DNA from: a virus
Length of the DNA: 64,000 nt
Direction: 5' to 3' (one strand)
IMG/VR virus record: IMGVR_UViG_3300032093_000017
Shown: one piece after another, positions 44,030-50,321 of the stretch
Position numbering within the stretch: the stretch's first letter is position 1
Layout: each line of letters begins with the position of its first letter
Program-made: the position numbers and the translations under genes
The notes under the pieces: generated by a model
Database searches by the model: none
Seen by the model: the letters and a program-made list of their open reading frames with translations, nothing else
Told to the model about the DNA's origin: nothing

Positions 44030-45031
44030 ATGAGTTTTGTTGATTCCAAATACATCGGGCTGGTATCTTCCCGACTGGATAAGTTTGCTAAGAAAAAAGA
44101 AGGTCTTTATAACTTTCGGTGCCCTTACTGCGGTGACAGTCAAAGGACAAAGAGTAAGGCAAGAGGATATATTTACCAATTAAAGAACGACCATAATTTT
44201 AAGTGTCATAATTGTGGAACTTCTAGAACATTTACAAACTTTCTCAAAGACTTAGATGTTGTTCTTTACGACCAGTATGTGATGGAAAGATATAAAGAAG
44301 GAACTACTGGAAAAAGGTCTCAAACAAAGAACCCAGAGTTTAAGTTTGAGAAACCAAATTTTTCAAAAAAGGCATTTGACCTGCCTACCATCGCAGAACT
44401 AAATAAAGAACATTCTGCAAGAAAATACTTAGAAGATAGAAAAATACCTAACAACTATCTGTGTGAATTGTATTTCTGTGAAAAGTTTAAAGAATGGACC
44501 AACACGCAAAAACACACCTTTGATAAAGTAGAACGGGACGAACCACGAATTATTATTCCTTTAATCAATAAAGGAGAAATATTTGGATTTCAAGGTCGTA
44601 GTTTAAATAAAAAATCAAAGGTGAAATACATTACAATTATTCTTGATGATACACATCCAAAAATTTACAATTTGGATAAACCAGACTACGACAAAATTGT
44701 TTATGTTGTTGAAGGACCAATTGATAGTATGTTTTTGGATAATTCAATTGCTATGGTTGGTGCAGACATCGATAAAATGTTTTTCATATCCAACTTTGCA
44801 ACAGAATTTGTAATGGTGTATGACAATGAAAAACGAAATAAACAGATCGTAGATAGAATGGAAAAAGCAATACAAATGCGATTTCCAATCGTCATTTGGC
44901 CGAATGACTTGAAAGAAAAGGATATTAATGATATGATCCTTTCAGGAATTGATGCCCCAAAAATCATCAAGGAAAATACTTATATGGGATTAGAAGCAAA
45001 AGCAAAACTTATTGGATGGAAACGAGTATGA
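44030..45031 (+). CDS. g61: DNA primase gp61
   Basis: FRCPYCGDS, KCHNCG, GFQGR, VVEGPIDS, YDNE, KDINDM. Confidence 0.97.
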   Translation: MSFVDSKYIGLVSSRLDKFAKKKEGLYNFRCPYCGDSQRTKSKARGYIYQLKNDHNFKCHNCGTSRTFTNFLKDLDVVLYDQYVMERYKEGTTGKRSQTKNPEFKFEKPNFSKKAFDLPTIAELNKEHSARKYLEDRKIPNNYLCELYFCEKFKEWTNTQKHTFDKVERDEPRIIIPLINKGEIFGFQGRSLNKKSKVKYITIILDDTHPKIYNLDKPDYDKIVYVVEGPIDSMFLDNSIAMVGADIDKMFFISNFATEFVMVYDNEKRNKQIVDRMEKAIQMRFPIVIWPNDLKEKDINDMILSGIDAPKIIKENTYMGLEAKAKLIGWKRV

Positions 45032-46722
45032 GCAACGGTACAAAGGTAATTAAGAGAAGTGGTGATAATGAACCTCTTGATCTCAATAAACTTCACTTAA
45101 TGGTTGAGGAGGCATGTAGGGACCTCTCTGGTGTTTCTGCATCACAGGTCGAGATGCAATCTGGTATTCAATTCTATGATGGAATTACAACAGCAGAAAT
45201 TCAGGAAATTTTAATTCGTTCTGCATCTGATTTGATTGATTTGGAAAATCCAAATTATCAATTTGTTGCAGCAAGACTACTTCTGTTTTCGGTGAGAAAA
45301 TCTTTGTATGGAAGAGTTCAAGATCATCCTACTTTTGTAGATCATATTAAGAAATGTGTTCTTGCTGGAGTATATGATCCAGAAATCTTGACTAACTATA
45401 CAGAGGAAGAACTTAATCGTCTTGGTGGTTATATTAATCATAACCGTGATTATCTATTTACTTATGCTGGTCTTCGTCAAGTAGTTGATAAGTATCTTGT
45501 TCAAGACCGTAGTGCTGGGCAAGTATATGAAACTCCACAGTTCATGTATATGATGATTTCTGCGACTATTTTTGCTAGATATCCAAAAGAAACTAGAATT
45601 TCTTATGTCAAACGATACTACGACGCAATCTCCAAACACAAAATCAACATTCCCACACCTATCATGGCAGGAGTGCGAACTCCACTTCGACAATTTGCTA
45701 GCTGTGTTCTTGTTGATGTTGATGACACCCTCGATAGCATCTTTAGTTCTGATATGGCTATCGGCAGATATGTTGCACAAAGGGCGGGAATCGGCATCAA
45801 CGCAGGTAGAATCCGTGGCATCAACGCTAAAATCAGAGGTGGAGAAGTTCAGCACACAGGTGTTGTCCCATTCCTCAAAAAGTTTGAAGCAACTGTCAGA
45901 TGCTGCACTCAAAATGGCATCCGTGGTGGATCAGCAACTGTCCACTTCCCAATCTGGCACCAAGAGATCGAAGACATCCTAGTATTAAAAAATAACAAAG
46001 GAACCGAAGACAACCGTGTTCGTAAGTTAGACTACTCTATCCAAATCTCTAAACTGTTCTATGAACGATTCATCAAGAATGAAGAGGTCTCTCTCTTCTC
46101 CCCACACGCAGTTCCTGGTTTGTATGATGCTTTTGGAACTGATGCTTTTGACGAGTTATATGTACGTTACGAACGAGATGAGTCTATTCCTAGAAAGACT
46201 ATCGGAGCTCAAGAACTCTTTTTGGACCTCCTGAAAGAACGTGCTGAAACTGGTCGTATTTACATTATGAATATCGACCACTGCAACTCTCACTCATCCT
46301 TTATGGATAAGGTTGAGATGAGTAATCTTTGTGTTTCTGGTGATACTAAAATCAAAATTAGATATCCAGAACCCATTTATAATGATATTGGTGAAGTATC
46401 TGATTGGAGAGTTTGTGAGATTGAAATTCATATTGAAGATTTAGAAATTTACCTTTCTGATAGGATAGCTATAATTGCATGTCTTTGTGATGATGTTCCT
46501 CAAATAGAAGTTCTTTCTTATAATATAGAAACTAATCAACAAGAATGGGCACCTATTACAGCATTTGCCGAAACATCACCAAAAGCAAAGGTAATGAAAA
46601 TTACTGATGAAGAAAGTGGTAAGAGTATTGTAGTTACACCAGAGCATCAAGTATTCACAAAAAATCGTGGATATGTAGTGGCAAAAGACCTAACCGAAAC
46701 CGATGAGTTGGTAATTAACTAA
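45028..46722 (+). CDS. nrdA: ribonucleotide reductase alpha subunit, N-terminal fragment fused to split-intein N part
   Basis: ATP cone, YETPQ, PTPIMAGVRT, QFASCVL, ...SNL followed by intein block A CVSGDT and block B VTPEH. Confidence 0.95.
   Translation: MSNGTKVIKRSGDNEPLDLNKLHLMVEEACRDLSGVSASQVEMQSGIQFYDGITTAEIQEILIRSASDLIDLENPNYQFVAARLLLFSVRKSLYGRVQDHPTFVDHIKKCVLAGVYDPEILTNYTEEELNRLGGYINHNRDYLFTYAGLRQVVDKYLVQDRSAGQVYETPQFMYMMISATIFARYPKETRISYVKRYYDAISKHKINIPTPIMAGVRTPLRQFASCVLVDVDDTLDSIFSSDMAIGRYVAQRAGIGINAGRIRGINAKIRGGEVQHTGVVPFLKKFEATVRCCTQNGIRGGSATVHFPIWHQEIEDILVLKNNKGTEDNRVRKLDYSIQISKLFYERFIKNEEVSLFSPHAVPGLYDAFGTDAFDELYVRYERDESIPRKTIGAQELFLDLLKERAETGRIYIMNIDHCNSHSSFMDKVEMSNLCVSGDTKIKIRYPEPIYNDIGEVSDWRVCEIEIHIEDLEIYLSDRIAIIACLCDDVPQIEVLSYNIETNQQEWAPITAFAETSPKAKVMKITDEESGKSIVVTPEHQVFTKNRGYVVAKDLTETDELVIN
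46330..46719 (+). mobile_element. split intein N-fragment (IntN, about 130 aa)
   Basis: Starts CVSGDTKI directly after SNL; TPEHQVFT..RGYV.AKDL...DEL blocks. Confidence 0.92.
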
Positions 46723-46726
46723 TAGG

Positions 46727-46780
46727 ATAGGGAGTGTAATTTCTACATTTTATAAATAGTTATGAGATTACACTTCCTAT
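46727..46780 (+). promoter_or_regulatory. leader hairpin with late promoter in the loop for the endonuclease gene
   Basis: ATAGGGAGTGTAATTTC pairs with GAGATTACACTTCCTAT; TATAAATA at 46751-46758; ATG at 46782. Confidence 0.8.
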
Positions 46781-46781
46781 T

Positions 46782-47453
46782 ATGAAAACCTATATTGTAT
46801 ATAAAATTACGAATAAGAAAAACGGAAAGTCTTATATAGGAAAATCTGAATATCCATTAGAGCATCGTTGGAATCGTCATTTATCATCAGCAAGAAATGG
46901 TTCTAAATTTAGATTTCATTCTGCTATTAGAAAATATGGGGAAGATTGTTGGGACTTATCTGTGATTGAAACTTACCAAACTGAAGATGAAAACTTTATT
47001 AATGAAAAGGAAACTCACTTCATTAAACTCTTTGAAAGTGATACTAAAGGTTATAATGCTACTTCGGGGGGAACTGGTGGATGGATGCTTCCAAGATGCT
47101 CACAGGAGGTTCAGGAAGAGTGGAGAAATGGTATTTCCATAAGAACTATTGGTTACAATAATCCAAACTATTCTGGATACACTGATGAGGAACTCATAGA
47201 AGTAGGTGTAAAGTTTGCTAAAAAATATGGATTTATTGGTGGAAGGAAAAGAATAGTTGAGTTTGCTCTTAGTGAATTAAATATTAAGTTTCCAAAACAT
47301 TTCTCCAAAAATAGATTTGACGGAAACCATCAAAACTTTTATAAATCTATTGAAGAACAAACTGGATTGGTGTATAATCCTTATTATAGAGACGAAACTC
47401 AAAGAAAACTTGCTAAACAACTTTTAGAACAAAATAGGAGAAAAAAATGCTAA
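46782..47453 (+). CDS. free-standing GIY-YIG homing endonuclease
   Basis: YIVYKITNKKNGKSYIG, R...H, E..FI, GYN.TSGG. Confidence 0.92.
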   Translation: MKTYIVYKITNKKNGKSYIGKSEYPLEHRWNRHLSSARNGSKFRFHSAIRKYGEDCWDLSVIETYQTEDENFINEKETHFIKLFESDTKGYNATSGGTGGWMLPRCSQEVQEEWRNGISIRTIGYNNPNYSGYTDEELIEVGVKFAKKYGFIGGRKRIVEFALSELNIKFPKHFSKNRFDGNHQNFYKSIEEQTGLVYNPYYRDETQRKLAKQLLEQNRRKKC

Positions 47454-47545
47454 AGATTGAATATCTTGAAGAAGAAATCCCAGTTTATGATATTACAGTA
47501 GAAGGAACTCATAATTTCTTCGCAAATGATATTCTAGTCCATAAT
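47447..47545 (+). mobile_element. split intein C-fragment (IntC)
   Basis: Block F VYDITV..THNF and block G HN/C. Confidence 0.92.
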
Positions 47546-48541
47546 TGCCAGGAAATTACTCTTCCAACAAAACCACTTCAACACATTGATGATCCCAATG
47601 GGGAGATTGCACTTTGTATTCTTTCTGCTGTTAATGTTGGCAAAGTAAAGTCTGATGATGAATTTGAAGATCTTTGTAATCTTTCTGTTCGTGGTTTGGA
47701 AGAATTGATTGATTATCAAAACTATCCTGTAGTTGCTGCAGAGATTGGAACCAAAGCACGTAGATCTTTGGGTGTTGGGTATATTGGTTTGGCACACTAT
47801 CTTGCTAAACTTGGTTTTAATTACGATACTCAAGAAGCTTGGGATGCGGTTCATCAATTGTCTGAATCGTTCCAATATTTCCTTCTAAAAGCATCAAATG
47901 AAGTTGCTAAAGAAAAGGGTGCCTGTGAATATTTTAATCGCACTAAGTATTCGCAAGGTATTCTTCCAATTGACACTTACAAGAAAGATGTGGATGAAGT
48001 TTCTTCTGTTCCTCTTCATCACGATTGGGAATCGTTAAGGCAATCAATCAAAGAGTTTGGTCTCAGGCACTCCACTCTTACAGCACAGATGCCATCTGAA
48101 TCCAGTTCTGTCGTCTCCAATGCCACAAACGGCATCGAACCACCTCGTGGATTTTTATCAATTAAGAAATCTAAAAAAGGTCCTCTCAAACAAATTGTTC
48201 CTCAATATCAACATCTTAAAAACAACTATACGTTGCTTTGGGATATGCCTAGCAATCGTGGTTATATTAATATTGTTGCAGTTATGCAGAAATTCTTCGA
48301 TCAAGCAATTTCTGGAAACTGGTCGTATAATCCAGAAAATTATGCCAATAATGAAGTTCCTGTTAGCGTAATGGCACAAGATATGCTTACTTGTTTTAAA
48401 CTTGGGCATAAGACGGCATATTATCAAAATACATATGACAATAAGACCGACGAAATTAAGGAGGAAAAAACTAATATTGACGATTTGGTTAAAGAACTTT
48501 TAGAGGGGGGGGAAGACGACTGTGAATCCTGTAAAATTTAG
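47447..48541 (+). CDS. nrdA: split-intein C part fused to ribonucleotide reductase alpha C-terminal fragment
   Basis: 33 aa IntC PVYDITVEGTHNFFANDILVHN then CQEI; CILSAVN, MPSESSS, GIEP, C-terminal CESCKI. Confidence 0.95.
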   Translation: MLKIEYLEEEIPVYDITVEGTHNFFANDILVHNCQEITLPTKPLQHIDDPNGEIALCILSAVNVGKVKSDDEFEDLCNLSVRGLEELIDYQNYPVVAAEIGTKARRSLGVGYIGLAHYLAKLGFNYDTQEAWDAVHQLSESFQYFLLKASNEVAKEKGACEYFNRTKYSQGILPIDTYKKDVDEVSSVPLHHDWESLRQSIKEFGLRHSTLTAQMPSESSSVVSNATNGIEPPRGFLSIKKSKKGPLKQIVPQYQHLKNNYTLLWDMPSNRGYINIVAVMQKFFDQAISGNWSYNPENYANNEVPVSVMAQDMLTCFKLGHKTAYYQNTYDNKTDEIKEEKTNIDDLVKELLEGGEDDCESCKI

Positions 48542-49706: not shown

Positions 49707-49732
49707 AATTGTAACAAAAATAACAAAAAAAA

Positions 49733-49762
49733 TTGACTATATAACGTACAAGGGAATATAAT
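49733..49762 (+). promoter_or_regulatory. sigma70-type promoter with adjacent imperfect NtcA box
   Basis: TTGACT-18 bp-TATAAT; predicted TSS near 49769; TGTA-N8-AACA at 49710-49725. Confidence 0.65.
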
Positions 49763-49770
49763 AAGTCCCT

Positions 49771-49834
49771 AACGTTCATCTGCTATTTGCGAATTGCGAA
49801 TGTAGACGGAAGTAAGCCGACTCGGAACGGAACG
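49771..49834 (+). ncRNA. glutamine riboswitch-like aptamer 1 (glnA / Downstream-peptide class)
   Basis: CGTTCATC-stem-GACGGAAGTAAG...GGAACG with P1 CGTTC/GAACG, matching the recalled glnA consensus. Confidence 0.8.
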
Positions 49835-50002
49835 TTCATCTATGGAAGCACTCATTCTATCTTGCTTACAAGCACAATTAATTGTAGGAAGAGTTCATAA
49901 ACAAGACATTCCTAAACAAGCAAAGAATGATTTAATTTGGGAGATTAAACAAATCTCACCAAAGACGTGTAAAATAGACGCAAAAGCCGACTGAAGGAAC
50001 GC
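49833..50002 (+). ncRNA. glutamine riboswitch-like aptamer 2 with a greatly expanded P2 loop
   Basis: CGTTCATCTAT...ATAGACGCAAAAGCCGACTGAAGGAACGC; P1 and P2 close around about 130 nt of insert. Confidence 0.65.
49842..49994 (+). CDS. 50 aa ORF nested in aptamer 2; not in ORF track
   Basis: MEALILSCLQAQLIVGRVHKQDIPKQAKNDLIWEIKQISPKTCKIDAKAD. Confidence 0.55.
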   Translation: MEALILSCLQAQLIVGRVHKQDIPKQAKNDLIWEIKQISPKTCKIDAKAD

Positions 50003-50032
50003 TCTTTAACCTAAAAACTAAGGAGAAACCTA

Positions 50033-50197
50033 ATGTCAAAAGTTGTATACCGTGGTGTTGAATATGACACTACAAACCGTCCTAATCAAACATTTAAATG
50101 TGAACCAAGAGTAGAAATTTATCGTGGTGCTATGTTTTATGTTGATGAAAATGGAAACAAACTTTCTATGCAGAAGTCGGGGGAAACAATTAAATGA
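50033..50197 (+). CDS. DUF4278-family small protein; not in ORF track
   Basis: 54 aa with two YRG motifs (VVYRGVEY, IYRGAMF); AAGGAG RBS. Confidence 0.8.
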   Translation: MSKVVYRGVEYDTTNRPNQTFKCEPRVEIYRGAMFYVDENGNKLSMQKSGETIK

Positions 50198-50286
50198 AAA
50201 AAATTAATGTCCTTCAACTTATTAAAGAACAAAAACAAAAAGAAAATCGTCGTCACCAAGCTAAAATAGTGATGATTAAAAAGTAA
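50194..50286 (+). CDS. 30 aa basic peptide; not in ORF track
   Basis: MKKINVLQLIKEQKQKENRRHQAKIVMIKK; ATGA overlap with the DUF4278 gene. Confidence 0.55.
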   Translation: MKKINVLQLIKEQKQKENRRHQAKIVMIKK

Positions 50287-50290
50287 ATTG

Positions 50291-50321
50291 ATAGGAGGGG
50301 CAATACCCCTCCTATTTTTTT
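50291..50321 (+). terminator. Rho-independent terminator
   Basis: ATAGGAGGGG-CAATA-CCCCTCCTAT followed by a T-run and late promoter TATAAATA at 50321. Confidence 0.9.

Follow-up and report, generated by a model that had tools for sequence, protein, structure and literature searches.

The leader located at 49773-50002 of the window (the whole 64,000-nt stretch of viral DNA that was analyzed, with features on its + strand) is best described as a double glutamine-I (glnA) riboswitch in which two cores are nested, an assignment supported by covariation. Since the cores are nested, a 50-codon ORF falls within stem P2 of the inner, circularly permuted core. We consider this architecture, i.e., a real gene, a real stem, and nested cores, to be close to certain. 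In the arrangement we propose, the outer core would be formed by the 5' strand that comes first in the element and the 3' strand that comes last, the inner permuted core would cap the other end of a helix P3 shared by both, and the 50-aa gene would fill the inner-core P2 loop and read out through P3.

The window originates from a T4-like cyanophage, whose nearest annotated relatives are the freshwater Synechococcus phages DSL-LC02, DSL-LC03, and S-SRM01. The riboswitch locus lies 3' of nrdB (PF00268), where an NtcA-like box is followed by a sigma70 promoter, the RNA element (49773-50002), the DUF4278 gene, a 30-aa ORF, and a terminator. Further upstream (45016-48541), nrdA is split in two around a GIY-YIG-like ORF (46782-47453), with intein-like ends. 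The NtcA-like box (49711-49724), which is a GTA-N8-AAC with one mismatch upstream of the promoter, is centered ~52 nt 5' of the inferred start site. NtcA sites are already known in cyanophage genomes (PMC3037559), and a perfect GTA-N8-TAC is present at -70 to -40 relative to the aptamer in 250 of 381 relatives, compared to 3 in a control interval. The sigma70-type promoter (49733-49762), TTGACT-18-TATAAT, matches the consensus at 11 of 12 positions, and transcription probably starts near 49770. The -10 box is flanked by an inverted repeat (49751-55/49766-70), which may be a DNA-level operator or a hairpin; action at the DNA level is conceivable because the 5' arm precedes the inferred start site. 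Within the 32 nt 5' of the aptamer, a hairpin of -3 kcal/mol or lower is found in 326/389 loci. The hairpin at the -10 box (49751-49770 in the window) is kept across most relatives while its sequence changes, and in some marine loci it is itself a GTA-N8-TAC box.

Downstream of the element, the 54-aa product of the gene at 50033-50197 is IF17-like with a YRG motif, and its match to PF14105 (E 1e-4, just under the cut-off) agrees with the DUF4278-like assignment made in the first-pass annotation. YRG is found close to the start in 360 of the 367 ORFs downstream of riboswitch loci. The third gene of the operon is a basic 30-aa ORF (50194-50286; phrog_545, E 0.0014), followed by a bidirectional intrinsic terminator (50290-50316). 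Within 50033-50286, the DUF4278 gene resembles the second half of phrog_545 and the 30-aa ORF its first half, both being weak matches; judging from these sequences, the two modules may be fused elsewhere in the opposite order.

For comparative analysis, relatives were gathered both by protein and by DNA pattern, and 389 distinct complete loci were parsed. Both strands of P1, along with the first half of P3, are preset by the search patterns, so that only free positions count as evidence. In the window, the outer core starts with the 5' strand of P1 (49773-49777), which lies in the RF01739 match and pairs with 49997-50001, this partner being set by the linchpin. It is followed by the P2a hairpin (49779-49806; pair probability 0.97), the loop of which is short in the window, and by a J2/3 (49807-49814) assigned by covariation that contains G22 (49808), the linchpin G23 (49809), and the E-loop AGUA (49811-14). 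Then comes the 5' strand of the shared P3 (49815-49822), which covariation pairs with 49985-49992, with two internal mismatches. The inner, circularly permuted core consists of a P1 hairpin (49825-49838; 49825-29/49833-37, predicted with p = 0.73), which covers -17 to -5 of the nested AUG, and a J2/3 without an E-loop (49979-49984), where the linchpin counts identify G49980 and C49981, the latter being the linchpin to G49830. The 3' strand of P3 (49985-92) and the E-loop GAA (49993-95) follow (49985-49995), with the stop codon UGA overlapping both, and the element ends with the 3' strand of the outer P1 and the linchpin C50002 (49997-50002), which is equivalent to C60, the partner in the G23-C60 role (PMC11477058; PMC6212724).

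This nested assignment, where 49833-37 pairs with 49825-29 and 49997-50001 pairs with 49773-77, differs from that of the first-pass annotation, which had closed a second, self-contained aptamer by pairing 49833-37 with 49997-50001. Two such self-contained aptamers in tandem have points in their favor, since the identical P1 strands allow both pairings, doublets of this kind have been counted as tandem in the literature (PMC9481103), and constrained folds give -56.8 kcal/mol for the tandem versus -53.7 kcal/mol for the nested topology, in an energy model that leaves out E-loops, linchpins, and ligand. Nearest-neighbor folding without ligand likewise gives almost no weight to the long-range P3 and the outer P1. 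However, the linchpins contradict a tandem (pseudo-cooperative) topology. In the known aptamer, the G23-C60 pair forms on ligand binding (PMC11477058; PMC6212724). In the window, unit 1 has G23 but its own position 60 is G, while unit 2 has C23 but its own position 60 is C, so that both self-linchpins would be mismatched (G-G and C-C). Across relatives, tandem linchpins fail in about half of the loci, whereas the crossed linchpin 49809:50002 is paired in 389/389, as G-C in 199 and C-G in 190. The inner linchpin 49981:49830 is Watson-Crick in 376/389 loci (C-G 374, G-C 2). On two trees, the outer linchpin changes 7 or 11 times, always on both sides together, with only 4 well-supported independent pairs (p = 0.125).

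The shared helix tells the same story. The two copies of AGCCGACU (49815-22 and 49985-92) form one helix, P3, the covariation of which also speaks against a self-contained second aptamer. P3 pair 8 is U-A in 258 loci, G-C in 63, and A-U in 54 (375/389 in all), and independent contrasts are 10:0 (p = 0.002), or 8:0 (p = 0.008) on the ORF tree. The E-loop halves are split as well, one in each unit (49811-14 with 49993-95), and each finds a partner only in the other unit; the 3' half of this outer-core E-loop is GAA in 346 loci and AAA in 43, and the inner core has no E-loop. Only in the nested register do both cores place P1 CGUUC/GAACG at a three-way junction with P2 and P3, the invariance of P1 being partly built into the search patterns. 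G22 together with a Watson-Crick 23-60 linchpin is found in 389/389 outer cores and 376/389 inner cores. Finally, in five relatives the 3-nt linker that corresponds to the inner P1 loop contains ORFs of 190-205 codons with both RNA halves kept. This fits a linker that is a hairpin loop, and insertions of 570 nt are what such a loop would accept. We therefore consider the tandem topology extremely improbable.

We next consider the ligand. An Rfam scan of the whole window at the gathering score returned nothing. The first half of the element (49771-49833) matches RF01739 with 31.3 bits (E 1.3e-4; gathering 35), a model that cannot represent nesting, the ORF-bearing half shows no RF01739 match, and four close relatives score 35.6-40.1, above the gathering score of 35. 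A glutamine-II/Downstream-peptide RNA (RF01704) was rejected, with no match at E up to 10 and an E-loop present. In our estimation, it is very unlikely that this fold senses a ligand other than glutamine, or that the outer core alone binds with the inner core as a scaffold. The Rfam score under the threshold in the window, the inner core lacking an E-loop, and the replacement of G23-C60 by C23-G60 in half of the loci are in line with this. Yet the outer core retains CGUUC/GAACG, G22, the linchpin pair, and the E-loop, close relatives exceed the Rfam threshold, and the gene context (DUF4278, NtcA box) is that of validated glutamine switches. The leader thus probably works like a glutamine-I riboswitch, with the outer core displaying the defining features that sequence comparison could address, while the inner core, without an E-loop, may not bind glutamine.

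The nested ORF (49842-49994; phrog_504) has the coordinates previously annotated, with ATG at 49842-44, TGA at 49992-94, 50 codons, and cysteines at positions 8 and 43, which are invariant. It has homologs on 185 viral contigs and is already annotated as a CDS in DSL-LC02 and S-SRM01. An ORF-length loop at P2b is found in 248/389 distinct complete loci, while the other 141/389 lack the ORF and have a short P2b loop; among cultured phages, the nested gene is present in P-SSM2, P-SSM4, P-HM1, and S-SSM7 and absent in S-PM2, S-CREM1, and P-TIM68. Of the 247 loci whose long loop contains an ATG, 243 have a loop length that preserves the frame and 235 have the stop codon at the same place, and all 235 nested proteins have exactly two cysteines. 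All indels are in frame, and dN/dS is ~0.10 for interior codons versus 61 close relatives, indicating purifying selection. Both other forward frames are closed in 112/112 nested-ORF sequences. Synonymous change is suppressed in the last five codons (pS 0.10 versus 0.50 in the ORF interior), which is expected where an RNA structure overlaps coding sequence. These comparisons support a real gene that is conserved as a protein.

As for the protein itself, the phrog_504 profile matches the window protein weakly (E 0.004) and marine nested ORFs strongly (E 2e-21 to 4e-8). It is predicted to be a two-helix hairpin (AF2 pLDDT 83.6), a fold that resembles other cyanophage proteins only. The 50-aa protein belongs to no Pfam family and has no Atlas match, no match among PDB folds (best E 2.8), and no homolog across 185,579 prokaryote genomes. 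JGI labels on its homologs, such as indole-3-glycerol phosphate synthase, were dismissed as misannotation. The RNA motif matches seven contigs in unrelated MAGs and Prochlorococcus single cells, which are probably phage DNA. RNA-library contigs of relatives from four studies span the region; they come from other strains and are uninformative about transcription level and translation.

The ORF is enclosed by a 5-bp stem, P2b, in which TCTAT (49839-43) is complementary to ATAGA (49974-78). The 5' strand (49839-49843) takes in the A and U of the start codon, the only AUG bases that are paired, and the 3' strand (49974-49978) corresponds to codons 45-46, both strands being assigned by covariation. 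It had been proposed that the ORF forms the loop of a riboswitch stem. This holds for codons 1-45, which lie in stem and loop, but not for the final five codons (DAKAD) and the stop codon, which lie outside the loop and occupy J2/3, the P3 3' strand, and the GAA of the E-loop. Since the TCTAT/ATAGA-around-ORF pattern is found once in the 64-kb window and an ORF-length loop recurs in 248/389 loci, P2b around the ORF is not due to chance. Covariation of P2, which was to be checked in homologous loci, is indeed seen. In 243 distinct loops, positions 1-5 are paired in 243, 243, 241, 233, and 226, respectively, and position 6 in 127; 97.6% of the pairs hold in register versus 34-53% when the strands are slid by 1-3 nt; and four or more pair types occur, including U-A, C-G, A-U, and U-G. 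Duplex energy is -7.9 kcal/mol for true end pairs versus -4.7 kcal/mol with shuffled partners. On the protein-interior tree, there is on average no independent contrast against P2b pairing, and for single positions the best p is ~0.03, the others not being significant. At least one AUG base is inside the stem in 215/235 loci. Special selection on the ORF interior for joining the stem ends was considered and rejected, because the interior and the DUF4278 gene both fold better than synonymous shuffles (z -2.25 versus -1.98, p = 0.41); within the interior, only a 4-bp extension (49848-51/49967-70) is common to the clade.

Genes are also found in other loops. The ORFs in the inner P1 loop of the five relatives (L177:4237-4806, L441:1623-2201, L449:5821-6435, L499:3534-4121 on the - strand, and L531:5755-6342) are endonuclease-like, with the homing endonuclease family phrog_314 matched in 3/3 tested. 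In L177 and L441, this ORF ends just 5' of the second CGTTCA and is followed by a 50-aa-type gene, while in L449, L499, and L531 it continues across a short P2b up to the same UGA. The P2a loop is ORF-length in 88/389 loci (e.g., L010:1245-1448). P2a ORFs include a two-Cys type with a hydrophobic N terminus in freshwater loci and phrog_6471 in P-SSM4, and they start ~13 nt from the inferred 5' end, leaving no room for a Shine-Dalgarno (SD) sequence. Profile comparison does not support the freshwater P2a ORF being a paralog of the 50-aa protein (probability 0.7%). Several variants were noted as well. In S-SRM01 (L081:2440-2670), a compensatory change, which counts in favor of the nested topology, turns P3 pair 1 into C-G and thereby removes the stop codon, so that the nested protein is extended through P1 and the anti-SD to 55 aa. 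A GC-richer locus (L608:940-1190) has E-loop halves in both cores, linchpins that are still crossed, and a nested ORF with its stop codon within P2b; an ancestral doublet with swapped strands may have looked similar. Another (L336:6480-6850) has three units, with short, ORF-bearing, and short P2, before a YRG gene.

This diversity bears on whether the enclosed gene is regulated at all. The riboswitch might control DUF4278 only, the loops being tolerant landing sites like the peripheral loops of group I introns, and the loop genes might ride on the NtcA-linked promoter with translation little dependent on glutamine. Several observations fit this: the ORF is optional, with ~80 presence changes on a short-gene tree (a number inflated by recombination), three loops accept genes, including homing-endonuclease-like ORFs, and the stems are predicted to form without ligand. 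In addition, five distant homologs are free-standing, outside any aptamer, and lack the DAKAD tail, which is why we take this tail to be aptamer sequence read through. Mere passengers would not explain, however, why 242/247 loci place the AUG 3-5 nt into the stem and not at some arbitrary point of the loop, as is also the case for P2a ORFs of other families, why the stop is fixed on the P3/E-loop junction, or why the 3' strand of P2b varies along with the AUG offset. We regard the landing-site explanation as rather unlikely and favor regulation of both genes by one RNA.

How this regulation might work is suggested by the position of the element, 5' of the DUF4278 gene with a predicted expression platform (50002-50025), where anti-SD 50002-08 pairs with SD 50019-25 (p = 0.98 in the free fold). 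C50002 starts this 7-bp hairpin over the DUF4278 SD. Because the same C50002 is the linchpin, glutamine should turn DUF4278 on. Based on homology and folding, G49809 would capture C50002 upon glutamine binding, which would weaken the hairpin on the ribosome-binding site (RBS) and switch DUF4278 on. The predicted cost of opening the DUF4278 start region decreases from 8.2 to 3.0 kcal/mol when the aptamer strands and C50002 are occupied. Among relatives, the bound state lowers this cost by over 1 kcal/mol in 99% of the C-type loci and in 85% of the G-type loci, the latter using a different platform hairpin.

For the nested gene, the first-pass annotation had suggested that ligand-induced folding buries the start codon. 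This is at odds with the folding predictions, in which P2 (p = 0.88) and inner P1 (p = 0.73) form without ligand and the nested start region costs ~7 kcal/mol to open without ligand at every nascent length tested. The nested start would therefore be helical from the outset and would be read during breathing or before stem closure. Since the ligand can only add stability, repression of the nested gene by glutamine is plausible and probably graded: the bound fold would lock the start further, so that high glutamine would mean less 50-aa protein and more DUF4278. Conversely, a ribosome on the nested ORF would unfold the aptamer, as had been anticipated, because it must unwind P2, P3, and part of P1. 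The simple reciprocal switch built on this is not supported, since termination on the nested ORF is predicted to make the DUF4278 start about as accessible as glutamine would (3.1-3.6 versus 3.0 kcal/mol, compared to 7.6-8.2 kcal/mol when closed). Unfolding of the aptamer does not simply turn DUF4278 off, because a ribosome footprint that reaches 50002 would open the downstream site. A ribosome on the ORF would thus reset the aptamer and, on stopping, briefly free the downstream site, a coupling that folding energies suggest is a leak in the same direction rather than a strict see-saw.

This coupling could be taken further: in alleles with the ORF, the DUF4278 site might be opened mainly by translation of the nested ORF, so that both genes rise together, with glutamine mattering on untranslated messages only. 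With a modeled terminating ribosome covering 50002, opening costs 3.1-3.6 instead of 7.6 kcal/mol, 235/247 loci have the stop at one fixed position, and there is a precedent for uORF coupling in the M. tuberculosis ppe2 switch (PMC11260477). Nevertheless, the edge of the ribosome footprint is an assumed value, 38 nt separate the stop from the next AUG, the nested SD is weak (-4.1 versus -9.1 kcal/mol for DUF4278), and ORF-bearing alleles fully keep the covariation of the ligand core. Translation as the main opener is therefore improbable. We give about an even chance to the modified reciprocal model, in which glutamine would lower the 50-aa protein and raise DUF4278, with a ribosome leak. With slightly less than even confidence, we propose the general picture of a one-RNA, two-output nitrogen switch across T4-like cyanophages, where whole genes are plugged into the loops of nested glutamine cores with their start codons in stems, and where a single ligand would silence the enclosed gene and switch on the IF17-like gene while ribosome traffic resets the sensor.

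Taken together, these findings imply that the aptamer of a metabolite sensor can extend across 230-450 nt with an entire gene inside it, which makes covariance-model scans miss it and gene callers take aptamer strands for coding sequence. Sensing and translation must then compete for the same RNA. They also suggest that certain glutamine riboswitches described as "tandem" are each a single unit with swapped strands. The element ties the two-Cys phrog_504 family and a phage IF17-like peptide to a nitrogen signal and provides a direct way to study how the nitrogen status of the host may be sensed by cyanophages in the course of infection.

Coding sequence looped out of an intact RNA core is familiar from homing endonuclease ORFs in group I intron loops and from the tag ORF of tmRNA. 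Unlike in these systems, the RNA that hosts the ORF here is a putative metabolite sensor acting on its own message, with the start codon being part of a stem. The nearest precedent for the layout is the uORF uMetE2 inside the M. tuberculosis metE B12 aptamer (~16 codons, +123 to +170; PMC11260477), which is likewise an ORF within an aptamer that is able to affect the downstream gene, translated there and predicted to be translated here. The section on it considered here shows neither conservation nor a protein product, whereas the phage gene has 50 codons, is under purifying selection, and is closed by a covarying long-range stem in hundreds of loci. In a full-text literature search, with Ames & Breaker 2011 and Ren 2015 outside its reach, we found phage glnA RNAs as annotations, doublets as tandem, and one short uORF in a B12 aptamer, and no description of nested glutamine cores or loop genes; within that range, the gene-inside-an-aptamer layout does seem to be new, as first suspected.

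Among glutamine riboswitches, 157 doublets have been counted as tandem and pseudo-cooperative (PMC9481103). Our element similarly has two aptamer-like units in a row before one gene, but according to covariation its units exchange strands and cannot fold independently. Composite binding cores made from strands of two aptamer units are also seen in the domain-swapped crystal dimer of the glutamine-II riboswitch, which is intermolecular and regarded as a crystal artifact (PMC7357161); here the swap is intramolecular and fixed by covariation, which would make it a natural counterpart of swapped dimers so far seen in crystals. A further close relative is the Synechocystis gifB leader (glutamine-I, RF01739), for which a glutamine ON mechanism has been proposed (PMC6212724) and which shares with our element P1 CGUUC/GAACG, G22, the 23-60 linchpin, the E-loop, a C60 in the anti-RBS helix, a DUF4278 gene downstream, and an NtcA-type site upstream. 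In contrast to gifB, the leader described here is phage-borne, its nested cores share P3, its inner core is permuted and without an E-loop, and its P2 is occupied by a protein gene that runs out through P3.
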